A stretch of DNA of 32,000 nucleotides from Candidatus Iainarchaeum sp. (GCA_016205145.1 JACQJH010000001.1:240001-272000), one strand, 5' to 3'. Shown: positions 1-31,680, counted from the first letter of the stretch. Program-made: numbers and translations. The notes: a model not told the origin generated them from the letters alone.

Positions 1-382
1 CGGTGTTGTGGATTGTCATCTGCGTGCTTGCATGCAATCTCAGCCCGGGCAAAAGCTCGTGCAGGCTGTGCGCCAGGCCGACGTCCTGCACGATTACAGC
101 GTCAATGCCATGCTCGTACGCACTCTTCGCCATGTCGATTGCCGCGCCGATCTCGAACTCGTTGAGCAGAATGTTCAATGTAAGGTAGGCTTTCCTGCCG
201 TGCAAATGCAAATAGTCGATTGCTTCTTTCACCTGCTCAGGCGAAAAGTTTTGCGCGCCGATCCTTGCATTGAACGCCTGGTAGCCGAAGTAAACAGCGT
301 CCGCGCCGTTTGCGACCGCAGCTTTCATGTGCTCAAAGCTGCCCGCCGGGGCGACAAGCTCCGGTTTGATTTGTTTCACCAT
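1..382 (-). CDS. peptidase U32 family protein, N-terminal part (3' end lies beyond the window start)
   Basis: Absent from the ORF track because there is no stop in the window. Reverse translation from the ATG at 382-380 gives MVKQIKPELVAPAGSFEHMKAAVANGADAVYFGYQAFNARIGAQNFSPEQVKEAIDYLHLHGRKAYLTLNILL..., a typical U32 (collagenase-like) N-terminus. The plus-strand ORF 8..460 is its antisense shadow. Confidence 0.75.
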   Translation of the reverse strand, partial: MVKQIKPELVAPAGSFEHMKAAVANGADAVYFGYQAFNARIGAQNFSPEQVKEAIDYLHLHGRKAYLTLNILLNEFEIGAAIDMAKSAYEHGIDAVIVQDVGLAHSLHELLPGLRLHASTQMTIHNT

Positions 383-1203: not shown

Positions 1204-2283
1204 TCAGCCAAGAAAGCCCTTTGCCTTAAGCAATTCCGCGTTCAGGATTCCGCCGCCGGCAGCGCCCCTGCCCGTGTTATGCGACAATCCGACGAACCTG
1301 AAGTCGAAGACCTTGCATTCGCGCAGCCTGCCGACCGAAACAGCCATGCCTTTTTCGGCATCCCTGTCCTTGCGCGGCTGCGGCCTGTTTTCCTCGAACC
1401 TGTAAATGATGGGCTGTTTGGGCGCGAAAGGCAATTTCAATTCCTGCGGCTCCGCCTTGAAATCCTGCCAGATCTTGATTATCTGTTCCTTCGAGGGCTT
1501 CTTGTCCTTGAATTCGATGCTCACGCAAGCAGTGTGCCCGTCGATTACGGGAACGCGGTTGCAGTGCGCGGAAATTTTGATGCTCTTGTCGTAAACGAAT
1601 TTGCCGTTTTCAATCTTTCCCAGAATCTTTTCAGGCTCGCACTCCGATTTTTCCTCTTCCCCGCCGATATAGGGAACGACATTGTCAATCAGGTCAAGCG
1701 ACGGCACGCCGGGATAGCCCGCGCCTGACGCTGCCTGCATTGTAGTGATAATCATTTTGCTTGCCTTGAACCCCGCTTGCTGCAACGCATGCACCGGCGT
1801 GAGATAGCTTTGCAGGGAACAATTTGGTTTGACCGCAATGAACCCCTTCACGAATCCGCGGTTTTTCTTCTGCACCGGAATTATTTTTATGTGCTCCGCA
1901 TTGATTTCCGGAATGAGCATTGGAATGTCGTCGGTATGTCTGTGCGCGCTCGCATTCGAAACAACGGGGATGTCGTGCCTCGCATACTCTATTTCAAGCG
2001 CCTTTGTCATGTCCTTGTCCATTTCAAGCGCGGAAAAAACGAAGTCGGCGTCGCATTCCTCGACTTTGTTCGCGTCCCTTACAACAAGGCCTTTCACGTG
2101 TTTCGGAATGTCTTCCTGCATCTGCCATCTTCCCGCAACAGCTTCGGCATAGCTTTTGCCAGCCGAAGAGGGCGAGGCCGCCACGCATGACACTTCAAAC
2201 CATGGATGATTCTCCAAAAGCCTTATGTAATTCTGGCCAACCATTCCGGTTGCGCCCAAAACCCCGACCTTCAGTTTCTGCAT
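1204..2283 (-). CDS. asd: aspartate-semialdehyde dehydrogenase
   Basis: MQKLKVGVLGATGMVGQ... (NAD(P)-binding GxxGxxG), ...NCSLQSYLTPVHAL... active-site Cys region, and full-length similarity to archaeal-type Asd. The track start at 2286 is TTG; an ATG at 2283 is preferred. Confidence 0.9.
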   Translation of the reverse strand: MQKLKVGVLGATGMVGQNYIRLLENHPWFEVSCVAASPSSAGKSYAEAVAGRWQMQEDIPKHVKGLVVRDANKVEECDADFVFSALEMDKDMTKALEIEYARHDIPVVSNASAHRHTDDIPMLIPEINAEHIKIIPVQKKNRGFVKGFIAVKPNCSLQSYLTPVHALQQAGFKASKMIITTMQAASGAGYPGVPSLDLIDNVVPYIGGEEEKSECEPEKILGKIENGKFVYDKSIKISAHCNRVPVIDGHTACVSIEFKDKKPSKEQIIKIWQDFKAEPQELKLPFAPKQPIIYRFEENRPQPRKDRDAEKGMAVSVGRLRECKVFDFRFVGLSHNTGRGAAGGGILNAELLKAKGFLG

Positions 2284-2432
2284 CAAAAAACACTCTCCAT
2301 GAAAACGAATTTATGCCGATTCGGCATTTTTGCCTGTCTAAAAGCAGTAAAAACTCCTCTACGAAACCCATTAAAAAACTAACTAAAAATTACGAAAAAC
2401 GTATGGACCGTTTTGCCTTAAAAAAGAAAATT

Positions 2433-2541
2433 TGCCGGTGGCGAGATATGAACTCGCGGCCTCTTGATTATGAGTTTCGCCCCGCAACACAAAAAAGCTG
2501 AATTGCAGTCAAGCGCTCTAACCAGGCTGAGCTACACCGGC
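2433..2541 (-). tRNA. tRNA-Met(CAT) (elongator-type, or Ile2-CAU) with a 34-nt non-canonical intron
   Basis: Hand fold: GCCGGTG TA GCTC AGCCTGGTTA GAGC G CTTGA [34-nt intron, 2475-2508] CTCATAA TCAAG AGGCC GCGAG TTCATAT CTCGC CACCGGC A. The acceptor, D, anticodon and T stems all pair. A T-run follows the 3' end. Confidence 0.8.
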
Positions 2542-2613
2542 AAACTCAATTCGGTTAGGCTATGATTTTTGCCTGTTAAAGGCTTTTAAAAGTTGTTTTC
2601 GGCGGTTTCGGTC

Positions 2614-3348
2614 TCAGATGGTGAAAAACCCTTTTTCGCCCAGGACTTCGGCTTCCTTCGACTGTTTGGTGTAGTCGAGCCTGCTTTTCACTTCGATGTG
2701 GCCGTTGTGCAATAGCATCCTGTCCGCATAGCCTATGAACAGGCCGGTTTCAAGCACGCCCGGAATCTCCTTTGCCTGGAATTCCAAGTCTTCAAGCGAA
2801 TAAATCCTGTCGACCAGCACTTCCGTGAGATAGTTGTTCGACTCGGTTTTCGCCGGCTTTCCGTCGCGCAAAACGATGTTTGCCCTGCCGAGCTTTTCAA
2901 GCTGTGCGACCGTGCGCTTCCAGCCGAAAATGGCGATTTCAAACGGGATTTTTCCATGCAATCTTGCGACAAGGTTTTTCCTTTCAGTGATGATTATGAG
3001 CTCTGCCGCGCTCTGCGCTATCATCTTGTCCCTCACAAGCGAATGCGAGTCGCGCTTGATGAAATTGAAAAAATTGTCAGCTTGGTCGACAAACTCGACT
3101 GCAACGTCTATTTCGATGTCGTTCAGCGAAACCACTTCAAGGCCCAGTTCGGTGAGCATTCCCGCCATTTTTGCGGAAGTGGGAACGACCGAAAACGACA
3201 GCTTTTCCTCCTCCGCCTTCAATGCGACCTTTTTGAGGAAGATTTCGGCCATCTCGCTTGTGCCGAACGACAGCACTTCGCCTTTTTTTATGTACTTGTC
3301 GACAAGCAGTTCAACCAGATTTTCGCTCAAAGCCATTGTAATGCCCAT
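2614..3348 (-). CDS. ribose-5-phosphate isomerase A-like protein (divergent active-site motifs)
   Basis: Collinear with RpiA: VVPTS, IDVAVE..D.AD, IK....L.RDK, IPGV.ETGLF. The GTGST, DGADE and KGxGGA motifs are degenerate. Confidence 0.6.
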   Translation of the reverse strand: MGITMALSENLVELLVDKYIKKGEVLSFGTSEMAEIFLKKVALKAEEEKLSFSVVPTSAKMAGMLTELGLEVVSLNDIEIDVAVEFVDQADNFFNFIKRDSHSLVRDKMIAQSAAELIIITERKNLVARLHGKIPFEIAIFGWKRTVAQLEKLGRANIVLRDGKPAKTESNNYLTEVLVDRIYSLEDLEFQAKEIPGVLETGLFIGYADRMLLHNGHIEVKSRLDYTKQSKEAEVLGEKGFFTI

Positions 3349-3440
3349 AATAGATTGATTCTGCTGTTTTTATTTTTTTGTCCTGCTGGCAGGGATTCCT
3401 GCGGCTTTTTTATTTTTTTTGCTGGAAAACCATTTTTCCC

Positions 3441-4556
3441 ATGATGTACCACATCATCACGACCCCGGACTGCAACCTTTGCTGCAGCTACTGTGCGGGC
3501 AAGGCCTTCGACGAGCCGGAGGACGCGAGCAACAACATGCAGTTTGAATCCCTGCCCATGAAAATCTCGTATTCGATGCAGGACCTCAATTCTTTCCTTG
3601 CCAAGGACAGGGAAAAGAAGGGCCTGATTTTTTACGGCGGCGAGCCTCTTGTAGCCCTGCAGTCAGTCAAGCAGGTAATGGATTCAGTGCAAGCCGACTA
3701 TTTCATGATGCAGACAAACGGCATTTTGCTCAACCTTTTGCCGAAAGAGTATGCAAACCGCTTTCACACAATCCTGGTTTCCATTGACGGCGGAAAGGAA
3801 AGGACTAACGCAAACAGGGGCGAGGGAACATTTGAACGCGTTGTCTCCAACCTCAAATTGCTCGGGCAAAACGGCTTCAAGGGCGAAATAATCGCGAGAA
3901 TGACTGTCGAGGAGCCCACAAACTTTTTTGACGACATCATGGCACTGCTCCACAACACTGATTTTGCGTTCTCTTCCGTTCACTGGCAGCTTGACGCAAA
4001 CATGTGGCACGATTACGAAAAAAGAAACTTCTCAAAATGGAGCAAAGCCTATAATCAAGACATTTCAAGGCTCGCGGATTACTGGCTTGCCGAGCTTGAA
4101 AAAGGAAACGTTTTGCGCCTTTATCCTTTCCTCGGCCTGCTTGACGCAATCCTCAATGGAACACAATACAATCTGCCATGCGGTTCCGGCACAGGCAACT
4201 TTTCAATCCTGACAAACGGCGAAATCAGCGCGTGCCCGATCATGGCGGGAGTGAAAGACAAATACGTTGGCAACATCCGCGATTCAAATCCGGAAGACCT
4301 GCCGTTCAAGATAACCGTCGGCGGGCCATGCGTTTCCTGCGAGGTTTTCAGCTATTGCGGAGGCAGGTGCCTTTATTCAAACATCGCAAAGCCCTGGCCG
4401 GAAAAAGGCTTCAAGGAAGTCTGCGGAACCGTAAAGCATTTGGTCAAGGAAATGCAGAGAATTCGCCCAAAAGTTAAGGCCTTGCTTGACAATGGAACAA
4501 TCGAATGGGAACAGCTTGCCTTCGTCAAATACAACAGCGCGGAAATTATCCCCTGA
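3441..4556 (+). CDS. radical SAM/SPASM-domain protein (peptide- or protein-modifying maturase type)
   Basis: CNLCCSYC contains the CxxxCxxC cluster near the N-terminus. C-terminal Cys clusters CGSGTGNF...SACP and CVSCEVFSYCGGRC match a SPASM domain. The ATG-ATG at 3441 is preferred over the 3378 alternative start. Confidence 0.8.
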   Translation: MMYHIITTPDCNLCCSYCAGKAFDEPEDASNNMQFESLPMKISYSMQDLNSFLAKDREKKGLIFYGGEPLVALQSVKQVMDSVQADYFMMQTNGILLNLLPKEYANRFHTILVSIDGGKERTNANRGEGTFERVVSNLKLLGQNGFKGEIIARMTVEEPTNFFDDIMALLHNTDFAFSSVHWQLDANMWHDYEKRNFSKWSKAYNQDISRLADYWLAELEKGNVLRLYPFLGLLDAILNGTQYNLPCGSGTGNFSILTNGEISACPIMAGVKDKYVGNIRDSNPEDLPFKITVGGPCVSCEVFSYCGGRCLYSNIAKPWPEKGFKEVCGTVKHLVKEMQRIRPKVKALLDNGTIEWEQLAFVKYNSAEIIP

Positions 4557-6038: not shown

Positions 6039-7247
6039 ATGTTCCGCTGGCTCAAAAACCTGTTCAGGCCGTCAAGAGGCCCGCACTATTTGATTGAATT
6101 CAGGTTTCATGGTTACACAAAAAAGTATCTGAAGGAAACCATTTTTGACGTCTCGAAAAAGTTCCGCGTTTCAGGCGTTACCAAAAAGCACGTTGTTCCG
6201 CATATAAGCTTGGTTGGGCCGTTTCAAACAAGAAACCAAAGAGAAGTCGTGTCCAAGTTTGTGAACGTGTCCAAAAAATATGGGCGCATAAACTTCAAGT
6301 TGTCAGGATTCCGCCACTTTGACGATCGGGTGGTTTTCGTTGATGTCGAGTCTTCCTCTGAACTGGCCAAATACCGGCAAGACCTGTTCAAAAGCTTGGA
6401 GCCAGTCATTTACACGACCGACACCGACTACCTTGAACCATTCGCGTTCCATTCTACAGTCGCCTTCAAAGACATCCAACACAAATTTGACAGGATTTTC
6501 TCCTATTTGGATAAACAAAAGCCTAAACAAATAAACCAAACCCTGCTCAGGGCCACGTTGTTAAAAGGCGGAAAAATTCTATGCGAATACGATTTCATTC
6601 AAAAAAGGCTGCTCAAACGGAAAGAGGCACTAGACAAAAAACTAATGAAAAAGACGATTGGCATATTGAAGGAAACCAAAAACGCGGACATCACAAAAAT
6701 ACCTGAATTTACGGCCAAAGAAAGCGAAGGAAAACGCACTTTTCTTATAAGCGACCTCCACTTGGACCATGCCAATATTATAAAATTCTGCAAAAGGCCA
6801 TTCAAGAATGTCGAAGAAATGAACCGCGCACTAGTTGATAATTGGAACAAAACTGTCTCTAAAAACGACACGGTTTATTTTTTGGGTGATATGGCATATG
6901 GCAAAAACAGCAGGTCGGCAAAATACTGGCTTTCCAAACTAAACGGCAAAATAGTGTTCATTGAAGGCAATCATGAGGATATTGGCAACATGAAATCATA
7001 CACGCAAATAATACTAAATTTTGGGCAAGAACGATTTCTCTTAATTCATGATCCAGCGCTCAAACCAGCCGACTGGCAAGGATGGGTTATCCACGGGCAC
7101 AAACACAACAACGATTTGTCTGGTTACCCATACATTAACAAAAAAAACAAAACAATCAACGTAAGCGCAGAATTGGTAAATTACACCCCAAAACGGTTAG
7201 ATGAGGTTTGCAAAGAAATTGGGGTGTTTGAATTCAAGATTCTTTAG
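6039..7247 (+). CDS. fusion protein: N-terminal 2H (LigT-like) phosphoesterase plus C-terminal calcineurin-like metallophosphoesterase
   Basis: Two HxS/Tx motifs (PHISLVGPF at aa 54-62, FHSTVAF at aa 137-143). Then DLHLDH...RPFKNVEEMN...NWN...YFLGDM...GNHE...IHGHKH, the metallophosphatase motif set. Confidence 0.75.
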   Translation: MFRWLKNLFRPSRGPHYLIEFRFHGYTKKYLKETIFDVSKKFRVSGVTKKHVVPHISLVGPFQTRNQREVVSKFVNVSKKYGRINFKLSGFRHFDDRVVFVDVESSSELAKYRQDLFKSLEPVIYTTDTDYLEPFAFHSTVAFKDIQHKFDRIFSYLDKQKPKQINQTLLRATLLKGGKILCEYDFIQKRLLKRKEALDKKLMKKTIGILKETKNADITKIPEFTAKESEGKRTFLISDLHLDHANIIKFCKRPFKNVEEMNRALVDNWNKTVSKNDTVYFLGDMAYGKNSRSAKYWLSKLNGKIVFIEGNHEDIGNMKSYTQIILNFGQERFLLIHDPALKPADWQGWVIHGHKHNNDLSGYPYINKKNKTINVSAELVNYTPKRLDEVCKEIGVFEFKIL

Positions 7248-17794: not shown

Positions 17795-17805
17795 GTAGAC
17801 CACGT

Positions 17806-17870
17806 GCCAAGTAAAGGCTTACTTGGCATATTGCGCAGCAATATGCCTTGGTTTCGCACCCGCCGGGCGA
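17806..17870 (-). repeat. intergenic hairpin element, copy A (between the tRNA-His 3' end and the hisD start)
   Basis: Plus strand: CTTACTTGGC; stem GGCATATTGC (17825-17834) pairs with GCAATATGCC (17838-17847); then TTGGTTTCG. An extra 9-bp hairpin GCCAAGTAA (17806-17814) / TTACTTGGC (17819-17827) lies just upstream of the hisD ATG. Confidence 0.55.
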
Positions 17871-17879
17871 TGACGGCGA

Positions 17880-18104
17880 GGCCTGTGCCGGGAATCGAGC
17901 CCGGGCCGGGGGATAACTGCAACCATGCGGTTTTTCGCAAACCTTTTTGGAAAAGGTTTCTTGCGGTTTTTCGCAAACCTTTTTGGAAAAGGTTTCTTGC
18001 GGTTTTTCGCAAACCTTTTTGGAAAAGGTTTCTTGCGGTTTTTCGCAAACCTTTTTCCAAAAGGTTTCCACAGTCCCCAATGCTGCCACTACACCACACA
18101 AGCC
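17880..18104 (-). tRNA. tRNA-His(GTG) with a 153-nt intron at the canonical 37/38 position
   Basis: 5' exon 18104-18068: G(-1) GCTTGTG TG GTGT AGTGGCA GCAT T GGGGA CTGTGG. 3' exon 17914-17880: A TCCCC CGGC CCGGG CTCGATT CCCGG CACAGGC C. The encoded G-1 sits opposite C73, a tRNA-His hallmark. All four stems pair. Confidence 0.8.
17927..18069 (-). repeat. four tandem copies of a 36-nt unit (GCGGTTTTTCGCAAACCTTTTTGGAAAAGGTTTCTT on the plus strand) filling the tRNA-His intron
   Basis: Units start at 17927, 17963, 17999 and 18035. The first three are identical; the fourth has GG to CC in the loop and is truncated at the exon. Each unit contains the 9-bp palindrome AAACCTTTT/AAAAGGTTT. Confidence 0.95.
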
Positions 18105-18107
18105 ATT

Positions 18108-18161
18108 CGGCGGTTTCGTCCGCCGGGTTCGACGACGGGTACTTCGCTGCGCTCAGTACCC
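18108..18161 (+). repeat. intergenic hairpin element, copy F (abuts the tRNA-His 5' end on the opposite strand)
   Basis: CGGCGG-TTTCGT-CCGCCG (18108-18125), GGTTCGAC (18126-18133), then GGGTACT (18137-18143) pairs with AGTACCC (18155-18161) across an 11-nt loop. Same layout as copy E. Confidence 0.5.
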
Positions 18162-18349
18162 ATCTGTTCTTTTTCGTATTATCCTCTGCCGCTAAAAGGT
18201 TTTCCGCCGCGAATCCAGCCTGAGGGCTGGGTTGCGTTGAAAACAGGCTTTCAGAGTTACTTCTATTCAAGAATTTAAGAGAATTTTCATACGATGTGAA
18301 GTAACTCACTTTTCATTCTGAAAACCTGAAATAATCTGCCTATGCAAGG

Positions 18350-18357
18350 TTTAAATA
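18350..18357. promoter_or_regulatory. palindromic TATA box TTTAAATA (within GGTTTAAATACC)
   Basis: The same GGTTTAAATA sequence occurs at 30853-30862 in front of a gene start. Direction here is unresolved. A plus-strand TSS would fall near 18380, at the edge of hairpin copy C. A minus-strand TSS would fall near 18325. Confidence 0.4.
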
Positions 18358-18381
18358 CCTATGCGGCGGCGGGAATTCGTG

Positions 18382-18441
18382 CTTACTCGGCCATTGCAAC
18401 GCAATGGCCTTGGTTCCGAACGCAGGGGGCTTCGCCCCCTC
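18382..18441 (-). repeat. intergenic hairpin element, copy C
   Basis: Plus strand: CTTACTCGGC; stem GGCCATTGC (18389-18397) pairs with GCAATGGCC (18401-18409); TTGGTTCCG; then the GGGGGC-TTC-GCCCCC hairpin (18425-18439). Confidence 0.55.
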
Positions 18442-18466
18442 ACCCGTCCCCAATCATTTACTACTG

Positions 18467-18528
18467 CTTACTCGGCGTATTGCGCTGGCAATACGCCTTG
18501 GTTCCGAACCAGCCGGACGGAACCGGCT
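18467..18528 (-). repeat. intergenic hairpin element, copy B (immediately 3' of tRNA-Leu)
   Basis: Plus strand: CTTACTCGGC; stem GGCGTATTGC (18474-18483) pairs with GCAATACGCC (18488-18497); TTGGTTCCGAACC; then AGCCGG-ACGGAA-CCGGCT (18511-18528). Confidence 0.55.
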
Positions 18529-18529
18529 T

Positions 18530-18613
18530 TGCAGGAGGGCGGATTCGAACCGCCGAACGCACTAAGCGACAAGGCCCTGAACCTTGCGGGTTTGGCCGCT
18601 TCCCTACCCCTGC
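18530..18613 (-). tRNA. tRNA-Leu(CAG)
   Basis: GCAGGGG TA GGG AAGCGGCCAAA CCC G CAAGG TTCAGGG CCTTG TCGCTTAGTGCGTTC (long variable arm) GGCGG TTCGAAT CCGCC CTCCTGC A. Confidence 0.9.
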
Positions 18614-18837: not shown

Positions 18838-19716
18838 TTATTCGCGGAACAGTATGAATGCGATTACCGCGAAGAGCGCGGGCAATAGCAGCAGGTTTGT
18901 TTCGGGAATGTTGGTTGCGCTTGTCCGCTTTGACACGCTGAAATAGGCTTCCCTTGAATCGTTGTTCGGATTGGAGTTTGCCGGTGGCGCAAGAGGGTCA
19001 ACTGGCACTATGCTTTTGAGTGTTATTTGCACTTTATAACTGTCTTTGTTTGCAGCAAGTCCCCCCGGCGGATTGTATGAATAGCTGCCGATTGTCAGTT
19101 CAGATTGGTTGGCCGGAACGTTTGAGAATGCGAGCAGGCCCGTGGCACTAATGCTGCCAACCGGCGTTGCCGATGGGCCGGGCGTGAAGGTTCCGCCGGT
19201 TAACGGGGTTCCACTGGTGTCAAAAAATTTGTATTCGGTTTGGAGGTTCACCGGCCCGGAATTGTTATTGTACACGCTGAGTTTTACTGTTATTGGATTG
19301 CCTTCAAAAATGCTTGGCGCCTTCACGTCAATCAGTGCGACGTCGTTGGCGCTGACTGGAACGCAGTGGCCGAGATTGACGCACACGTACAATTCGCTTA
19401 GGGTCAGCTTGCACGTTCCGTTGTCGCAGTGGAAGTTTATTTCGCAGTCCGCGGAGCTTGTGCAGCTTGCCGCGTTTCCTGTGCCGGGCGCCTTTCCGCC
19501 TTTCAGCAGGTCAAGGTCGACGCGATAGTTTGTTCCCTGCTCGGAGTTGCTGCCTTTTGAAACGTAAAAATAGTAGCAGAAATTCGTGCCCGCCGTGAGC
19601 TGTATGCTTGGGTCTGCGGGCGCGGGGCAGGTTACTGCCGCGAATGCGTTGCCTGCAAGGAATGCCATGAACAGCGCAGCTGCCAGCAAAAAAAACTTTT
19701 TTTCCATTTTTTTCAC
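18838..19716 (-). CDS. secreted Cys-containing surface protein with a CARDB-like domain and a C-terminal TM anchor
   Basis: Signal peptide MKKMEKKFFLLAAALFMAFLAGNAFA|AV. The C-terminus ...IPETNLLLLPALFAVIAFILFRE is a short motif, a TM helix, then charged residues. GTGA overlap with the upstream gene (ATG alternative at 19707). Confidence 0.75.
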   Translation of the reverse strand: MKKMEKKFFLLAAALFMAFLAGNAFAAVTCPAPADPSIQLTAGTNFCYYFYVSKGSNSEQGTNYRVDLDLLKGGKAPGTGNAASCTSSADCEINFHCDNGTCKLTLSELYVCVNLGHCVPVSANDVALIDVKAPSIFEGNPITVKLSVYNNNSGPVNLQTEYKFFDTSGTPLTGGTFTPGPSATPVGSISATGLLAFSNVPANQSELTIGSYSYNPPGGLAANKDSYKVQITLKSIVPVDPLAPPANSNPNNDSREAYFSVSKRTSATNIPETNLLLLPALFAVIAFILFRE

Positions 19717-20309
19717 GCGCTTATTCCGACCATGCGGAAAAACTTTTCCACTTTCCCTGTTTCAATGTCGACTATCGCTATGAACGAACCCTTTGCCGCC
19801 GAAGAGAATTCCACGAGGTGCAATTCCTTGTCCGGCAAATTTTGGTATATTATGAACTGCTGTTTTAGTATTTCTTTCTTTTCTATCGTGAGAACGTAGA
19901 CTTTCGCGTCAAAACCTTGGTCCTTCACGTATGCCTGGTAAGTCGCATTGGTTGCTGCAACTTCTATCGCCTTTGCCGTCTTCGCAGAATCGGTTTCCTC
20001 GCTCAATTGTGCGCTTTCTTCGGGTTTGCCTGCCCCCGCACTTGTTTCAGCCTGGCTTGCGGTTGGCTTTTCTGTCACGGTCACAGTGCTGTTTTTGCTG
20101 TCCCGCTCTGCCTGCAGCCGGATTTCATTCATTTCGTTTTCAATGTTTTTCTGGATGTTGGCGTAAGCCAGGTATCCCAGAACAACGGCCAGGATTACCG
20201 CGGCCACCAGAAAGACTATGGTGGCTTTTTTGAATGTACTTCCAGGTTTTGCCGGAGCATCGCTTTTGGCTTCCTTTTTTGCCTGCGTTGCTTTTTTTTG
20301 CGGCACCAA
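19713..20309 (-). CDS. hypothetical N-terminally membrane-anchored protein
   Basis: 198 aa. Lys-rich N-terminus, then the TM helix IVFLVAAVILAVVLGYLAYA. TTG/GTG start. Lies in an operon with surface-protein genes. Confidence 0.6.
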   Translation of the reverse strand: MVPQKKATQAKKEAKSDAPAKPGSTFKKATIVFLVAAVILAVVLGYLAYANIQKNIENEMNEIRLQAERDSKNSTVTVTEKPTASQAETSAGAGKPEESAQLSEETDSAKTAKAIEVAATNATYQAYVKDQGFDAKVYVLTIEKKEILKQQFIIYQNLPDKELHLVEFSSAAKGSFIAIVDIETGKVEKFFRMVGISA

Positions 20310-20341: not shown

Positions 20342-23300
20342 TCAGGACGTGAACGTCACATTGATTGTTTCGGTTGCGCCCGTTGCATTGTCCCTGATTG
20401 TCGCGGTTCCGGTGTGCGGCGTTCCGGGCACAAGCTTGCAGTTTAACGGGTCGATCTGCACCGAAATGATGCCGTTGTTGAATGCCGGCGAGATTGCCGG
20501 GGTGCTGCAGCTTTCGCCTGCAACAGTGGAATTGACAGTGAATGCAACCGTGCCGCTTTGCACGGGCTGGCCGCCGGCCTTCATTATGAAACCGTTAAGG
20601 AAAAGGAAAACGTTCACAGGCTGCAATGTCTGGCCTGAAGTGTTCTGGCAGGTTCCCTGGCAGCAGACCAAGCCGTTTTGCACGTCCTGCACTGTTCCAG
20701 AGCACAATTCAGTTGAAGCATCGCAGGTGTTCCAGCCTTGGTCAGTGCAAGCCTGTTCGAAGTTTGTGGGATTGGTGCATGCAACGTTGCAGCAGACGCC
20801 ATAAGGATAGGTTGCCTGCACGTTCGAGCATGTCTGCAGGCCCGTGCAGTAAATGTTTGTAGAACAGGTCACGACTCCGCCCCCGCCGCCCGGCGCTGTG
20901 TGCCCGTGCTCTAAATCGTATTGGCAGCTTGTCATGAGCGTCGGTGTTCCGGTTGAATTGTCATAAACCTGCAAGGTTATCTGGTGGATTGTCGGGTCCG
21001 TTACCACAGCATAACTGTGGTTTACGCCCGCTGAAAGGTTTGTGATTTGCCCAAATGCAACATCTGCGAACGCGCCCGCGGAATCCCACTTGATTTTTGC
21101 CGTATGGCCGGAGCCGACTGGGTTTGACACGCTTGCCTTGACATTGACTGTTGCGGCATTCGCCGGATAAATGTTTGACGGGTCGACCAGGAGGTTGCAG
21201 CTTGGCGCGTTTCCGCCTGTTCCCCCGGTGCCTCCGCCCCCGGTCAGCACGGGGCTTTGCCTTAAAGTCTTGGTGCACGAATAACCGTCCACATCGGTGT
21301 AAGTGACGTCATAGCTTATCTGGCTTTCGAAATTGTTCTGTCCGTAAGTGCATGTTCCGCCGGAGCTTATTGCCGGCGCGTTGTTTCCGCATGAGATTGT
21401 TCCGGCCGGAGCCGCGTCCGGACTGAAGTTTCCGGCTTCAACCTTTATTTCACCGCCAACTGCGTCAATCTGGTCGATGGCTGCGCCGACGCTTCCATCC
21501 GCATTAACTGTTTTCGTGGTTATCTGGCAGGTTTTTCCTCCGCCGCCCCCTCCGCCATTGTTTGAGCCGCCGTTGCGGAATGGGCAAGTAAGGTCTGCTG
21601 ATATTGTCGGGTCTGCTCCCGTGTTCGGGTTCTTACGGAAAAAAGTTGACCATGCTGCCGCGGTCGGGCTTGGCGTCCAAGTTGAAACGATAAAGTTGTT
21701 GGCCAATATTCCCGTATGGTTGATTGTTCCGCTCCCGCTCCAATTGCATGCGCCCATCGTCACTGCCTGGTTATTGCCTGTGATGCTGGGCACTTCTTCA
21801 ATCTTTATGCCTTTTGTGTCGCCGTAGTCAACAGATACCGTGAGCCGCTTGGAGCCATTCCATATGCCCGTGCCTTGCAGCAACAGCTTGTAGTCCTTGT
21901 CTGTTTCGGCGTTTCCAACTGAAATGACGTGATCGAATGCAGCATTGTTGAATGCCATGCGGCCGCGGACCAATTCAAGGTCTTTTTCTGCCTGAATTCC
22001 CAGATATATGAATGGCATGTCAATGTTTTCAAGCCTTATTCTCGGTGCCGTGATCAGCTTTAAAACATACACGTAGGTTCCGACAAGCTTTATCTCTTCG
22101 TCTGCATCGATTGTCATCTTTTCGTTTCCGTTGCCGTTTTCCGTGCCTTCAAACCGGCTGCCTGAAACGTCGATTTTGTTGGCTTTCAGCAGTTTGATGT
22201 CGTTTCCCCAGCCGTTTTTGAAATTGGTGTTCCGGATGGTCAATGTTTCGTCCGCCTGGATTACCGCGCCGCTGGGGTCTGTTGCAGTGTTGGTGGTCAC
22301 GTCCCAGAATTCCGGGTTGTTTAAAATGGTTATGTTTTTTGCGCGGATTAGGCTTACAATGCTTCCTTCATTGAAATTGCGCTGGTCCAGGCCCTTCCCG
22401 CTGATTGTGATGTTGCCGTTCAATGCCTTGATTTGGGCGTTTGCGCTGTTAGGGCCGATTACTGACCAGAAAGTCGTGTTTGCCAGGTTTATGTTTCCGT
22501 TGGCTGACTCTATTTTTGATATTCCGTTGTTGTTGAGGCCGTCAAAGCCCTGCACGTTTGAAACCGTGATGTTGTTGTTTGCCGTCAAAGCCCCTTTCAT
22601 GAAATGAATGCACCATCCTCCGCCGCAGCTGCTGATGTCGTGGATGTTGATTGAGCCGTTTGGTGCGGTTATTGCCGCCGGGTTTTCAACCGCCTTGCCG
22701 TTTTTCTGCCCGGTTATTTCCAGTGCGGCCTGCGTGCCGTCATCCGGGCCGTTCACGGTTATGGGATAGTAATTGTTCACAAAGCTGATTTTTGAGTTCT
22801 GGCTTTTCATCCTTCCGCCGACGGTTATGCCGCCCGTCGAATACATTTCAACATTTGAAAGGTTTAGGTTTCCGCCAGAATTGATGCCCTGCAGTTCTGT
22901 GCGCGAATTGGAAATTGTTGTCTGCAATGAGCTTTCCAGCTTCGGGTTGTGCCTGACATCGGTTCCGCTTAAAATTATCGAGCCGTTCGTTGCTTTGATC
23001 AGGCGGTCGGTTATGCCGCTGCCGTCAATTGTATACTGTGCGACCGGCCCTTTTCCCGTCATGCTGATTGCCCAGTTGCCCGCAAATTCGCCAGTTCCGC
23101 TTTCATCGGTTCCGCCGGCGGTAATGCTTCCGTTCTGCTGGAAATGCATTCTTGAATTCGTCGTTTTTATTTTGCCTGTTGATGCTGTCACGGGGCCGCT
23201 GATATAGTGTATTTGCGTGTCATTGAGCTTGAGGTTTCCCCTGCACAGCTGGATTTTGTTTGGCAAGTGGATGCCTATGTCCCTCCCGGATGTCCTGCCG

Positions 23301-24331
23301 TCAACGACCATTCCGGCGTCGGCTGTCGGCGCAGTGCAGCCTACTTTTATTTCGCCGTGGTCCGCTATAATAACCGAGTCTGTTGATGTGAATTTGCCTT
23401 CAACAGAGATGTTTGTGGGGCATTCACCGCCCCAGCAGTTTTCTATTTCGCTGTTGGTGAGCGTGAAATTGTTGCCGACGTTTATGCGGCTGGCGTGCAG
23501 TGCGCGCCCGCCGTACAATCCGCTTACCGTGAGGTTTCCGCCTGCCGTAATTGTCGTGCCGGTTTCAGGGGCATGCAGTTCAACCCTTGCGCCGCTCATG
23601 TAAATGTTGTTGCCGGCGTTGATGCTTGCGCTGCCGCCCGCATTGCCAACCAAATCCACTCTGTTGTTTTGCAATGTTATGTTTCCGTTCGGGACGCTGA
23701 GGCTTTTGGCGTAAAGCGCGTAGTTGTCGCGCTGGCCTCCGGCATAAAAGTCGCTTCTGGCGGTGATTGCGCCGTGGTCGGTCCGGATGTTTGAACTGTA
23801 CAGCCAGATTCTCTCCGCAGTCACTATTCCGGGCGCATTCACCTGGATGCGGGCGCTGTCGTTCAATTGCAGGGTTTCGTCAAGGCTTATTGATGTGACA
23901 TCCGCGATTGACGCGCCGTCCCTGCTCGGGCCGGTCGCGCTTATTGAAGTCGCATCAATGGTCATGTCGATTGTTGTCCTGCGCCTTATGACTCCGCTTG
24001 GTTCCCCGCTGGCCGGTCCCCTTATGTCAATAATGAGTTTCCCTGTTGTCGCCTGAGAACCGCTTTTCGTTAGGGCTATCCTGTTTGTTCGCAGCACTCC
24101 GCCGGGCATTATCGTCAAATAGTATGTGCCAAAACCGCGGTCTTCAAGCTGTCCCTTGCCGACCAAAAACTCGTTTATGTGTATTTCGCCTGGGCTGTTG
24201 TCAATGTAGCAGTAAAAGTTGGTTCCGACTTCTTGTTGGTACGAGCAGGCAGTAAGCGCGTTTGCCGCCTGCATTGCCAAGATGAATGCGAATGCCGCCA
24301 CCGCCAAAAGAACCCTTTTTTTCATTGTCAT
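20342..24331 (-). CDS. giant secreted beta-helix-repeat adhesin-like protein with poly-Gly linkers and a Cys-rich C-terminal module
   Basis: 1329 aa with signal peptide MTMKKRVLLAVAAFAFILAMQAANA. There are hundreds of residues of degenerate GN-I-T/L...N repeats (a parallel beta-helix signature), linkers GGSNNGGGGGGGK / GGGGTGGTGGN / GGGGG, and a module rich in C-x-C motifs near aa 1150-1225. Confidence 0.8.
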   Translation of the reverse strand: MTMKKRVLLAVAAFAFILAMQAANALTACSYQQEVGTNFYCYIDNSPGEIHINEFLVGKGQLEDRGFGTYYLTIMPGGVLRTNRIALTKSGSQATTGKLIIDIRGPASGEPSGVIRRRTTIDMTIDATSISATGPSRDGASIADVTSISLDETLQLNDSARIQVNAPGIVTAERIWLYSSNIRTDHGAITARSDFYAGGQRDNYALYAKSLSVPNGNITLQNNRVDLVGNAGGSASINAGNNIYMSGARVELHAPETGTTITAGGNLTVSGLYGGRALHASRINVGNNFTLTNSEIENCWGGECPTNISVEGKFTSTDSVIIADHGEIKVGCTAPTADAGMVVDGRTSGRDIGIHLPNKIQLCRGNLKLNDTQIHYISGPVTASTGKIKTTNSRMHFQQNGSITAGGTDESGTGEFAGNWAISMTGKGPVAQYTIDGSGITDRLIKATNGSIILSGTDVRHNPKLESSLQTTISNSRTELQGINSGGNLNLSNVEMYSTGGITVGGRMKSQNSKISFVNNYYPITVNGPDDGTQAALEITGQKNGKAVENPAAITAPNGSINIHDISSCGGGWCIHFMKGALTANNNITVSNVQGFDGLNNNGISKIESANGNINLANTTFWSVIGPNSANAQIKALNGNITISGKGLDQRNFNEGSIVSLIRAKNITILNNPEFWDVTTNTATDPSGAVIQADETLTIRNTNFKNGWGNDIKLLKANKIDVSGSRFEGTENGNGNEKMTIDADEEIKLVGTYVYVLKLITAPRIRLENIDMPFIYLGIQAEKDLELVRGRMAFNNAAFDHVISVGNAETDKDYKLLLQGTGIWNGSKRLTVSVDYGDTKGIKIEEVPSITGNNQAVTMGACNWSGSGTINHTGILANNFIVSTWTPSPTAAAWSTFFRKNPNTGADPTISADLTCPFRNGGSNNGGGGGGGKTCQITTKTVNADGSVGAAIDQIDAVGGEIKVEAGNFSPDAAPAGTISCGNNAPAISSGGTCTYGQNNFESQISYDVTYTDVDGYSCTKTLRQSPVLTGGGGTGGTGGNAPSCNLLVDPSNIYPANAATVNVKASVSNPVGSGHTAKIKWDSAGAFADVAFGQITNLSAGVNHSYAVVTDPTIHQITLQVYDNSTGTPTLMTSCQYDLEHGHTAPGGGGGVVTCSTNIYCTGLQTCSNVQATYPYGVCCNVACTNPTNFEQACTDQGWNTCDASTELCSGTVQDVQNGLVCCQGTCQNTSGQTLQPVNVFLFLNGFIMKAGGQPVQSGTVAFTVNSTVAGESCSTPAISPAFNNGIISVQIDPLNCKLVPGTPHTGTATIRDNATGATETINVTFTS

Positions 24332-25131
24332 TGCGCATCACCCGGCGCGTTTGTGTCCGGCGGCCCATAGTTTGAGCCGGGGTCGGACATCGGAACCACT
24401 TCCGGCTGGCTGGTTTCCTTCGGAGGAACAAAATCCGGGTCCGGCGTTCCCGCTTCGCAGGCCTCTTTTATGTAATTCCAGTATTCCTGGTCCTGGTTGC
24501 GGGCTTTCATGTTTTCGATTGCCATTTCGTTCCCGATGCCTGCCAGCTTTTCGGAAAGCTTTTCTGCAATGGTTGTGGAAATGCCTGCCACGACTGCCGC
24601 GCCTGGATTGCTGTTGAAAAGCCCTTTGGCGATTTTGTCGGCGCCCGAAATTTCTTCGCGCGCGGACAAGACTTTCTGTTCGGCTGACGGAATAAGCTTT
24701 GCTATTGCACTGCTTGCGCCATCCCCGCAGAGGTTCACTTTTCCGATTTCTTCAAACCCCTGCCTTGCGCCCTCTATCGCGCTTATGGCGTTCAGGGCCG
24801 AATTGTATGCCGCGGTTGTCTGCCCGCCGGTTTGGTCGTCTTTTGCCAGCAGAGCAACGCCCTGCTTGAGTTCGGCTATTTTTGCGCCGGTCATGGGCTT
24901 GTCGTCCGGGCCGCTTGCCGCGAGATAAGAGTCAATTTCGGTTGTGATTGCCGAATAGTCCGCGATTTTTGCGTTGTTTTGCGGCACGGCTTTTTGTTCC
25001 ACGGGCTTGGGCGCGAGCACGTTTCCGAACGCGAAGCCGATTGCAATGAGCACAACCAGTATTCCGACGAATGCCGCGGGCTTCAAGGTTACGGCGTTGT
25101 CCTTGAGGAACTGCAAACCCATGTTCTTCAC
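24328..25131 (-). CDS. hypothetical N-terminally membrane-anchored protein with a Pro-rich C-terminal tail
   Basis: 267 aa with TM helix AAFVGILVVLIAIGFAFGNVL. First gene of the surface-protein operon; its TGA overlaps the next ATG. GTG start at 25131 (ATG alternative at 25122). Confidence 0.6.
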   Translation of the reverse strand: MKNMGLQFLKDNAVTLKPAAFVGILVVLIAIGFAFGNVLAPKPVEQKAVPQNNAKIADYSAITTEIDSYLAASGPDDKPMTGAKIAELKQGVALLAKDDQTGGQTTAAYNSALNAISAIEGARQGFEEIGKVNLCGDGASSAIAKLIPSAEQKVLSAREEISGADKIAKGLFNSNPGAAVVAGISTTIAEKLSEKLAGIGNEMAIENMKARNQDQEYWNYIKEACEAGTPDPDFVPPKETSQPEVVPMSDPGSNYGPPDTNAPGDAQ

Positions 25132-29281: not shown

Positions 29282-30838
29282 TTATTGCAATTCCGAGCAC
29301 GCGCTTAATCCGGGGCGGAGCATTGCCCTGTATTGCCTTTTGTTCCTGATCTGCACGCCGATGTCGTTGTTTTTGACTATCCCGATTTTGGCTTCGGTTT
29401 CCTCGAGCAGTTTCCTGTCAAGGTCGGTTTCAACCGGCGTCGAGAGCGCTATGCCCGTGCCGAAGGTTTTGAGTTCGAGCATTGTTTCGGCGATGCTTTT
29501 GCCGTCAAGCGTTTCATCTTCGAACGGCGCCAGCTTTTCCGTTTCGGGGATGAAAACCATTGTTTTGAGCCCTCCCCGCGAACCGTGTTTCCTGAAATGG
29601 TTGAGCAGTTCCCTTAACAGCGCGTCGACCATAATGAGCGACTGCCTTTTGTCCAGGCCAGCCAGGCTGATGTGGCTTGTCCTGCCGATGCCATGCAGCC
29701 ATTTTTTTGAAATTTCCTCGACGTTGTTTTGGCCGCCGAAAAATCCGGGATAGCGAACATCCAAAAGCTTTGCAAGCCTTATGGTTTTGAGTTTGTGGAA
29801 ATCGTTCCAGTCGTCCGTTGCGGGCATTTTTTCTATTTCTTTTATGAGGCCGTCGATCGACTCCGCTTTCGACAGCTTTACCGCCTTTGCAAGAGTTTGC
29901 GCTGCAACGTTGTTTCCGGTTTCAAAGAGTTCCAGCACGCCGTCAGCATTGAGGCTTGGAATGCATGCCTTGATGTTTTCCTTGGGCTTGAATTCCCTGA
30001 ACGGGAAACCGATGGGTTCCACGTCAAGCTTGTAGTCGAGGAGCTTTTCCTTCTGCTCCGTCTGCCTTTTGAGGCCGGAAAACCTGTCGCTCCAGTCGAA
30101 GACTATTGCGGGCAGGCTTGAAAGCAGGGCGCTTTCGATGAGAATGTGCATTGCGTGGTTTCTTTCCTTTTCAGTTCCGCCGTAGATTACGGTGTGCGAG
30201 AAAAGCCTCAGCGGCTCTTTGAGCGGCTGGTTTTCCGCGGAAACCCCGAGAATGATTTCACCGGCCAGGTCGTGTTTTTGCATGTTTCCTTCATCCCGCT
30301 CCCCGTCGGCTGTTGCAGGCCCGGCAGTGCCAAGGCTGTTAGGCATGAGTTCCATTGCCAGCAATGGCTGGGAGAAGAACGCGTTTTTTGTCTCGTCGCC
30401 GCTTTTTTCCAGTTCCGAGAGCTCTATGTCGTATGCCTTTGAAAAGTTGCCGACAAGCTTTGCCGAGGTTTCAATCTGTTTGAGCTGCTCGTCGACGGTT
30501 TCCTCGAGCGAATCCTTTTCAAGCGGCGAATACGCCGGCTCGGAGGGCAGGAGCAGGAATTTCATTGTTTTTTTAGGGTCGTGCCTTGAAACGACTATCG
30601 CGTCTTTCGGAAAGGTTTCAACGAAACCGTCTATGTTGCCGGTAGCGTGGAAAACCTTGAAGAGCTGCGTAAGCGCGCCCTTTTTTTTGCCGTTTTCCTC
30701 GTCGAAGACGGTTGCGAGCACGACGGATTCCGGGTTCAATTTGATTTCCGAGGCGTGGCCCAGGACATTGCCTTCGAACAATTGCTTCCAAGGGCCCTGT
30801 AAAAACCTGGCCTCTCCGCTTTTCCGTTTCATGCCCAT
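29282..30838 (-). CDS. HerA/DUF87-like protein with degenerate Walker A and B motifs
   Basis: SHTVIYGGTEKERNHAMHILIE...PAIVFDWSDRFSGL aligns with the HerA pattern H-hhI-G-TGSGKS-N...hhIhD-HGEY. ISLAGLDKRQ...LKTMVFIPETEKLAP aligns with the Walker B segment (hhhEEAH). The TATA at 30855-30862 favours an ATG at 30838 or 30832 over the TTG at 30868. Confidence 0.65.
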   Translation of the reverse strand: MGMKRKSGEARFLQGPWKQLFEGNVLGHASEIKLNPESVVLATVFDEENGKKKGALTQLFKVFHATGNIDGFVETFPKDAIVVSRHDPKKTMKFLLLPSEPAYSPLEKDSLEETVDEQLKQIETSAKLVGNFSKAYDIELSELEKSGDETKNAFFSQPLLAMELMPNSLGTAGPATADGERDEGNMQKHDLAGEIILGVSAENQPLKEPLRLFSHTVIYGGTEKERNHAMHILIESALLSSLPAIVFDWSDRFSGLKRQTEQKEKLLDYKLDVEPIGFPFREFKPKENIKACIPSLNADGVLELFETGNNVAAQTLAKAVKLSKAESIDGLIKEIEKMPATDDWNDFHKLKTIRLAKLLDVRYPGFFGGQNNVEEISKKWLHGIGRTSHISLAGLDKRQSLIMVDALLRELLNHFRKHGSRGGLKTMVFIPETEKLAPFEDETLDGKSIAETMLELKTFGTGIALSTPVETDLDRKLLEETEAKIGIVKNNDIGVQIRNKRQYRAMLRPGLSACSELQ

Positions 30839-30854
30839 AACCAAAAACCGCAGG

Positions 30855-30862
30855 TTTAAATA
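30855..30862. promoter_or_regulatory. TATA box TTTAAATA (GGTTTAAATATG) in a divergent intergenic region
   Basis: Centred about 21-27 nt upstream of the minus-strand ATGs at 30838/30832. A second A/T box, CCTAATAAAAATTTTT (30891-30906), precedes the plus-strand ATG at 30921. Confidence 0.5.
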
Positions 30863-30920
30863 TGCCAATTTTATTATTAGATAAGTGTTAGCCTAATAAA
30901 AATTTTTGGTTGCGGTTTGC

Positions 30921-31580: not shown

Positions 31581-31602
31581 CTGTTTCTGACTTTGCAAAC
31601 AC

Positions 31603-31680
31603 CTTACTCGGCATTCTGCGAAAGCAGAATGCCTTGGTTTCGGCACGCGCGGTCGAAAACGCGCCCGGACGAAACCGGCT
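31603..31680 (-). repeat. intergenic hairpin element, copy D (starts at the stop codon of the minus-strand gene)
   Basis: Plus strand: CTTACTCGGC; stem GGCATTCTGC (31610-31619), GAAA loop, GCAGAATGCC (31624-31633); TTGGTTTCG; inner GCGCG hairpin; then CCGG-ACGAAA-CCGG (31665-31678). Confidence 0.55.

Follow-up and report, generated by a model that had tools for sequence, protein, structure and literature searches.

A tRNA-His gene in a 32-kb window of Candidatus Iainarchaeum sp. (the window being the whole stretch of DNA that was analysed, 32,000 nucleotides) is interrupted in its anticodon loop by 153 nt that consist almost entirely of direct repeats. This raises the questions of whether such a gene can still furnish a working tRNA, what the insert is and where it came from. 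DPANN genomes are small and have, as a rule, one gene per tRNA. The matter also has a practical side, as default tRNA annotation can overlook genes with introns of this length: because of the long insert, this one was called neither by ARAGORN in its default mode nor by Rfam at the gathering score, and therefore the metagenome-assembled genome (MAG) would seem to be without a tRNA-His.

When run with its intron search, ARAGORN identified a tRNA-His(gtg) at c[17878,18104] whose positions 37 and 38 are separated by an intron of 153 nt, and it again called tRNA-His(gtg) from the artificially spliced exons. The gene is complete (minus strand, 18104..17880, the plus strand of 17880-18104 being its reverse complement), with all four arms paired and an encoded G-1 that pairs opposite C73; the exons alone make up a complete tRNA of defined identity (His). 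An earlier note made from the sequence of this DNA had described a tRNA-His(GUG) with G-1 opposite C73 and an insert at the canonical 37/38 site. ARAGORN and inspection of the pairing bear out the former, and the ARAGORN intron search places the insert at exactly 17915-18067; to that description of an intron-bearing tRNA-His only the strand, which had been left out, has to be added. The features of the locus are as follows, all on the minus strand:

18068..18104, minus strand: 5' exon of tRNA-His(GUG), 37 nt, from G-1 to loop base G37 (ARAGORN intron search; aligns to the intronless orthologues of L040 and L042)
18104..18068, minus strand: parts of the 5' exon in order, namely G-1, acceptor 5' strand GCUUGUG, D arm, anticodon stem GGGGA and loop bases CUGUGG
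18070..18073, minus strand: 5' strand of the central 4-bp helix of the splice motif, C32 U33 G34 U35 (pair list; register as in PMC4090602)
17915..18067, minus strand: intron, 153 nt, at position 37/38 (ARAGORN intron search; exactly the stretch missing in the L040, L042 and L043 orthologues)
18033..18068, minus strand: repeat copy 1, GAAACCUUUUGGAAAAAGGUUUGCGAAAAACCGCAA, with 2 mismatches to the consensus and loop GG; its first base is exon base G37
17997..18032, minus strand: repeat copy 2, identical to the consensus (0 mismatches)
17961..17996, minus strand: repeat copy 3, identical to the consensus (0 mismatches)
17925..17960, minus strand: repeat copy 4, with 1 mismatch, the last base being U and not A
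17915..17924, minus strand: intron tail GGUUGCAGUU, 10 nt, followed by A38 (sequence inspection, pair list and constrained folding)
17880..17914, minus strand: 3' exon of tRNA-His, 35 nt (ARAGORN intron search)
17914..17880, minus strand: parts of the 3' exon in order, namely A38, UCCCC, a 4-nt variable loop, T arm CCGGG CUCGAUU CCCGG, CACAGGC and C73
15593..17794, minus strand: hisD-HAD fusion, first gene of the his operon (Pfam), 85 nt downstream of tRNA-His on the same strand; the interval is free of T5 runs

The body of the intron is made up of four head-to-tail 36-nt hairpin units that precede the 10-nt tail. Tandem Repeats Finder reported this array at 17926-18068 with a period of 36, 4.0 copies, 98% matches and a score of 272; a search with the 36-nt pattern GAAACCUUUUCCAAAAAGGUUUGCGAAAAACCGCAA recovered four adjoining minus-strand copies with 2, 0, 0 and 1 mismatches, and none of 100 shuffled sequences had any match. 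The claim of four head-to-tail copies, three of them identical, is thereby confirmed. The three identical copies are those of the plus-strand register that starts at 17926, in which the fourth differs only in its loop (CC versus GG) and in its last base. On inspection, the central UGGA of copy 1 proved to be an exact 4-nt inversion of the UCCA found in copies 2-4. The sense strand from tRNA-Leu to hisD has no U5 run and the intron RNA in the orientation found has U4 runs at most, in contrast to the antisense strand of the array with its eight T5 runs. We also considered and rejected two other identities for the array, namely a CRISPR array, as the units lie directly head to tail with no spacers, and a coding ORF.

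If the gene works, the array has to be removed by splicing, and the junctions were examined for a motif of the bulge-helix-bulge (BHB) kind, i.e. a 4-bp helix that lies between two 3-nt bulges and contains the first two bases of the anticodon (PMC4090602). Such a motif is present: the central helix joins C32-U35 (CUGU) to GCAG (17920-17917), the 5' bulge comprises G36 (18069), G37 (18068) and the intron base A1 (18067), and the 3' bulge comprises U, U and A38. The anticodon stem GGGGA/UCCCC serves as one outer helix and h', formed by AACC of the intron (18066-18063) with GGUU (17924-17921), as the other; all eight pairs of CUGU/GCAG and AACC/GGUU are standard. The earlier note had correctly recognised a BHB motif at the junctions, but its UGUG/UGCA register was shifted by one with respect to the correct CUGU/GCAG, such that one U of its GGUU helix was used twice and the cuts would fall wrongly.

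Folding of the transcript assigned -82.5 kcal/mol to the cloverleaf with the full motif and -86.3 kcal/mol to the unconstrained minimum, a gap of 3.8 kcal/mol. If the cloverleaf is enforced, the central helix arises unprompted (-83.8 kcal/mol), and its probability in the free ensemble is about 0.5. The outer AACC/GGUU helix is missing from the unconstrained minimum-energy fold and has a pair probability below 0.01, since hairpin 1 uses AAACC for its own base. In these models the splicing enzyme may meet a slightly relaxed motif, which would be unremarkable here since many DPANN endonucleases have loops linked to broader specificity (PMC5829648). We propose that splicing depends on nothing in the intron but its tail and its first five bases. 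The modelled junctions thus point to an intron of the EndA-spliced BHB type, with the splicing itself being predicted; neither EndA nor RtcB is among the scanned ORFs of the 32-kb window. A second intron-bearing tRNA in the window, tRNA-Cys(GCA) (2432-2542, minus strand), has an insert of 34-36 nt in which CUGC can pair with an internal GCGG, but the strict 3-nt/4-bp/3-nt motif could not be drawn at 37/38; its junctions may be relaxed or mis-delimited.

The tRNA-His gene lies in a his-operon locus. Its neighbour, the hisD-HAD fusion of 733 aa, shares 100% identity with MBI4052671.1, a protein from a MAG that bears the label Candidatus Diapherotrites archaeon, and a contig search with the fusion protein returned only a Methanothrix hisD of about 50% identity. 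Following hisD are hisC, hisB, hisH, hisA, hisF-hisI, hisG, the histidyl-tRNA synthetase, tRNA-Thr(GGU) and RpiA. As there is no U5 run from tRNA-Leu to hisD, co-transcription of tRNA-His with the operon is possible. The window also encodes a family B DNA polymerase.

Comparison of this locus across genomes bears on the history of the intron. In the closest relative found (L040), which has a hisD that is 85% identical and shares the order tRNA-Leu(CAG), tRNA-His, hisD with the window, the tRNA-His gene is 72 nt long and intronless. Five positions separate it from the predicted spliced product, and two of these constitute a compensatory change of C2:G71 to U2:A71. Both genes share the odd T-loop CUCGAUU (C54), which makes C54 a lineage trait and not a sign of decay. 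In a more distant relative (L042, from GCA_964540145.1, and L043; hisD 53% identical) the tRNA-His gene, some 150 nt upstream of hisD, has no intron either, and the gene order of the window recurs downstream of it (his operon, HisRS, tRNA-Thr(GGU), RpiA). With both syntenic relatives intronless at the same spot, the intron appears to have been gained in the lineage of the window; a single gain is most likely, being the most economical history under parsimony over three genomes, with a gain followed by a loss as a possible alternative. As close relatives do without it, the intron is not required for tRNA-His function. The earlier note had called for this comparison and had suggested a recent expansion of the array: the orthologues in L040, L042 and L043 all lack the intron, and their intronless state, together with the near-identity of the copies, supports that suggestion.

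Several other features of the locus were noted in the course of this comparison. A stretch at 18215-18366 (minus strand), in the approximately 190-nt intergenic region between tRNA-Leu and tRNA-His, is near-identical in L040 and better conserved than the protein genes that flank it. At its start is a TATA-like GGTATTTAAACC (18348-18359), and it also includes a GC hairpin, as well as GTGAGTTACTTCAC (18296-18309) and its partial inverse GAAGTAACTC (18254-18263); the motif GTGAKTTACTTCAC is also found upstream of the his operon of L042, with the variants GTGATTTACTTCAC and GGGATTTACTTCAT upstream of hisG in L041. The scanned part of this stretch had no Rfam match. As a candidate promoter/operator of the his operon or small RNA, it would put tRNA-His within a regulated his leader. 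Directly upstream of tRNA-His (18108-18161, minus strand) are two GC hairpins, GGGUACUGAGCGCAGCGAAGUACCC and CCGGCGGACGAAACCGCCG; in the L040 counterpart of the first the loop is kept and the stem is different yet complementary (GAGGGUUU...AAACCCUC), suggesting that the tRNA-His has a structured 5' leader. Another interspersed element, distinct from the intron unit, has the form AACCAAGGC-stem-loop-stem-GCCGAGTAAGC and is present in four copies with covarying stems (17817-17853, 18381-18415, 18466-18503 and 31602-31639, all minus strand), two of them after tRNA-Leu and one after tRNA-His, with a related copy in L040. Elsewhere in the window, a 402-aa ORF (6039-7247, plus strand) has a 2'-5' RNA ligase/2H phosphoesterase domain (PF13563, E 1.7e-15), a class that acts on the 2',3'-cyclic phosphate ends left by tRNA splicing. 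ORFs with no Pfam match lie at 20342-24331, 18838-19707, 19713-20309, 24328-25131 and 29282-30868; one of these is of 1329 aa, and the 289-aa ORF at 18838-19707 has, by eye, a signal-peptide-like start followed by a cysteine-rich stretch.

We then asked whether the repeat unit is peculiar to this intron. A search of public metagenome contigs with the 22-base pattern AAACCTTTTNNAAAAAGGTTTGCG returned 30 stretches, and the core of the unit, AAACCUUUU-NN-AAAAAGGUUUGCGAAAA, was found at no fewer than 17 distinct intergenic sites on archaeal metagenome contigs. At 17 distinct sites the GCG is followed by AAAA, which lies outside the search pattern, and most of these then show a short GC hairpin with a variable stem. 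Across archaeal contigs of 29-50% GC the hairpin core is conserved base for base, the 17 sites being intergenic and on contigs of 29-48% GC. The neighbours are unrelated housekeeping genes (SRP54, rpl3, rps15, ftsZ, IMPDH, phosphomannomutase and others), and at several sites they score as archaeal (L3_arch, archaeal S15, RPA-like SSB and TrmB-like proteins). Some sites have one unit and others a tandem run of two to four or more; both orientations are represented, and the 1.24-Mb contig Ga0066333_11 has four separate exact-core sites. It was found neither elsewhere in the 32-kb window nor in the relatives L040-L043, and a scan of viral contigs for the hairpin core gave 0 matches. An RNAalifold run on 18 units had no informative outcome, because hairpin 1 is invariant as the search pattern and hairpin 2 is out of register.

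Some matches and some roles for the element could be set aside. The gapped core-plus-tail matches in viral contigs (n=13) were attributed to chance, as they have no hairpin module and no tRNA, and at least some are coding by eye; the pattern matches from fermentation metagenomes are GATC-flanked with no AAAA extension and apparently represent another element. A his-specific operator was rejected, as the element flanks unrelated genes elsewhere. A one-directional terminator is not supported, given that the element is antisense to its neighbours at about 8 sites and sense at about 7, and a promoter fits poorly with a distance to the next start codon that ranges from 0 to more than 60 nt. No terminal inverted repeats, target-site duplication or cognate transposase were seen at the borders of the intron.

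Individual intergenic sites illustrate the variety of these arrangements. Tandem arrays of the element lie between genes in L013 (~2050-2220, minus strand; period of about 42 and at least four units), L016 (2329-2401) and L028 (5430-5501), where the unit comprises the conserved hairpin, GCGAAAA and then a varying small palindromic hairpin, with one unit having a 28-nt insertion. In L024 (~100-270, minus strand) and L022 (4270-4440) the element lies between an 11-12-nt duplicate of a tRNA 5' end and the complete tRNA, the duplicated starts being GAGCCCGTAGCT for tRNA-Arg-UCU and CCCCCCTTAGT for tRNA-Tyr; the L024 insert also includes GCTACGGGC, which is complementary to the duplicate, as well as TTTGCGAAAAAA duplicated in tandem. 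Such an arrangement may preserve a record of how element and tRNA genes become associated.

In one case the element was found again within a tRNA intron. The tRNA-Asp(GUC) of locus L031, c[4323,4471], has a 74-nt intron at 37/38, as in tRNA-His, consisting of two 30-nt units (26/30 identical) and the tail AAGAAGUUGCAGUC before A38. The same 28-29 nt module directly follows G37, the CUGU/GCAG helix is in the same register, and the 3' end of the intron, GUUGCAGUC followed by A, can be set beside GUUGCAGUU followed by A in the window. Of this resemblance, 22 shared bases constituted the search pattern; the position in the tRNA, the AAAA extension and the tail lay outside it. The same intron fits tRNAs for His, Asp, Asn and Tyr, because GUN-anticodon tRNAs with C32 U33 have CUGU at 32-35. 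The shared sequence has grown in tandem twice independently, with periods of 30 and 36, and the two units in L031 together with the two to four at intergenic sites indicate that tandem growth is a property of the element. Beside the tRNA-Asp gene of L031 lies a free-standing, convergent LAGLIDADG-type ORF (3179-4315; PF14528, E 4e-7) that ends 8 nt from it, and on its other side is an RsmB/F-type RNA methyltransferase. Long introns that do not resemble the hairpin element in sequence occur in two tRNA-Ser genes on Ga0066333_11 (L029, 6896-7062 and 8249-8450); they measure 80 and 114 nt, and the shorter is a long palindrome.

Taken together, we consider it likely that the locus is a working tRNA-His gene with a BHB intron that derives from a dispersed hairpin element, was gained and expanded by slippage in this lineage, and is carried as neutral or selfish cargo. 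Under this scenario, the module would be a copy of the conserved archaeal element AAACCUUUU-NN-AAAAAGGUUUGCGAAAA, and an ancestor with one unit would have been a 45-nt intron, which is ordinary for archaea. The loop of copy 1, GG, is the commonest among the intergenic copies, with CC in copies 2-4; a single inversion of the hairpin loop, as from template switching at the hairpin, would account for the difference between copy 1 and the others. The CC copy would then have been duplicated with almost no later change, through slippage in replication or through unequal recombination, either one acting on the palindromic unit. EndA would cut at the two 3-nt bulges (G36 G37 A; U U A38), after which RtcB would ligate the exons and probably close the excised 153 nt into a circle. 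The array itself is most likely neutral or selfish cargo and no functional part of the tRNA. The opposite orientation would add eight U5 runs to the pre-tRNA, which may explain why both tRNA introns have the element in the sole orientation observed; such a bias is a weak inference from two cases. We also entertain, with considerable doubt, a more far-reaching reading, in which the hairpin module with the tail GUUGCAGUY is a mobile splice-competent cassette of DPANN that moves among GUN tRNA genes (His, Asp and potentially Asn and Tyr) and intergenic DNA and grows by tandem duplication.

The other readings concern the number of units, the state of the gene and the use of the array. The count of four comes from one assembly, and the array region has repeated k-mers up to k=95 and an exactly periodic stretch of 131 nt, so that the number of units would be fixed only by reads of at least ~133 nt or k of at least 96. 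Moreover, the Logan contigs from three runs with identical flanking proteins, which represent the same population, all end at ~17874 and ~18541-18596, i.e. on both sides of the tRNA-His gene at flanking tRNA sequences, with none spanning it; a look-up of the spurious ORF through the array likewise found no product spanning it recorded elsewhere. The intron could accordingly be real and its four units an arbitrarily resolved de Bruijn loop, with a true number that is smaller, larger or variable. We regard this as unlikely, since the assembly has three distinct junction contexts (the GG-loop copy, a CC-loop copy leading into another copy, and the last CC-loop copy leading into the tail), which need at least three units, and tandem units are also present in the L031 intron (two) and at intergenic sites (two to four).

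A different possibility is that the element inactivated this copy of the gene and that another tRNA-His serves the cell. The near-identical repeats do imply a recent event, such that intact exons alone are no proof of function; yet a random insertion would not have a tail that exactly fits a 4-bp helix and two 3-nt bulges at 37/38, the same architecture persists with diverged units in the tRNA-Asp of another archaeon, a conserved syntenic tRNA-His heads the his operon in three genomes, and, as noted at the outset, DPANN usually have one gene per tRNA. A dead gene is, on this evidence, very improbable. Only slightly less so is selection for the array, be it as a stable and possibly circular four-hairpin RNA platform or decoy, or as four palindromic DNA sites at 36-bp spacing for tRNA-His and the his operon. 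The regular spacing of the units, the position of the gene between a conserved promoter/operator-like region and hisD, and a core conserved base for base at 29-50% GC, implying constraint or mobility, are consistent with such a role. However, the two syntenic relatives are entirely without the intron, at its other sites the element has unrelated housekeeping genes as neighbours, whichever way it points, and is hence not his-specific, there are no box C/D motifs and no Rfam family, and near-identical copies are what neutral recent slippage is expected to produce. The multivalent-RNA role advanced in the earlier note finds no support.

Our favoured interpretation, a slippage-expanded BHB intron, makes the insert an unusual member of the ordinary archaeal protein-spliced class, of which the repeat-array body is the new part. 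It shares with canonical archaeal BHB tRNA introns the 37/38 position, the 4-bp helix, the two 3-nt bulges, the outer helices and an archaeal host with other tRNA introns, but differs in having a tandem array of near-identical hairpins as its body and, at 153 nt, in lying beyond the 11-129 nt (medians of 12-25 nt) reported for archaeal tRNA introns in a 2014 review (PMC4090602). We found no description of a tandem-repeat tRNA intron in the full-text literature searched, which leaves most subscription journals outside its scope; the novelty of the repeat intron holds to that extent and is qualified by the dispersal of its unit and by the two-unit intron of tRNA-Asp.

The intron also invites comparison with the transposed intron families of the Thermoproteales, for which similar introns across tRNAs are described (Fujishima et al. 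2010, as summarised in PMC4033280 and PMC4090602). In both systems a similar intron is present in different tRNAs (here His, and Asp in L031), and the intron is present in some close relatives and absent from others, which implies that it was gained recently at the level of DNA. The present case differs in belonging to a DPANN lineage, in being seen only at the canonical position, and in having a sequence that is also intergenic and tandemly expanding. With REP/MITE-like elements the hairpin element shares a short conserved palindromic core at many intergenic sites, single or tandem (two to four or more units) and in both orientations; it differs in that no terminal inverted repeats, target duplications or transposase are established for it, and its abundance per genome is apparently low (four exact-core sites on the 1.24-Mb contig).

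Long introns with a modular body have a precedent in the tRNA-Trp intron of Euryarchaeota, which includes a box C/D guide RNA. As in that intron, the body here is a discrete RNA module unneeded for the splice motif; the difference is that the orthologues are intronless and no conserved guide function is indicated. A box C/D guide was itself rejected, the sense strand of the intron having no TGATGA, CTGA or TGA. No match to group I, group II or any other Rfam family was obtained for the intron at the gathering score, and a permissive Rfam scan of 17800-18350 gave only chance matches to miRNA-type hairpins, far below threshold. Circularisation by RtcB would be expected for a BHB-excised intron of such size and stability, which would liken the intron to the circular tRNA-intron RNAs, i.e. 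archaeal circular introns and metazoan tricRNAs.

The origin and spread of archaeal tRNA introns are still unsettled, and the best evidence has come from the similar introns in different tRNAs of the Thermoproteales. The locus described here offers a natural before/after pair, namely the same syntenic tRNA-His with and without an intron in genomes with hisD 85% identical, and it links the body of the intron to a dispersed intergenic hairpin element. The tandem expansion, with the splice motif undamaged, shows the freedom of the intron interior and extends the length range of the 2014 review. If the cassette reading were true, a very recent gain would have been caught, and the mechanism by which archaeal tRNA introns are gained would become directly testable.
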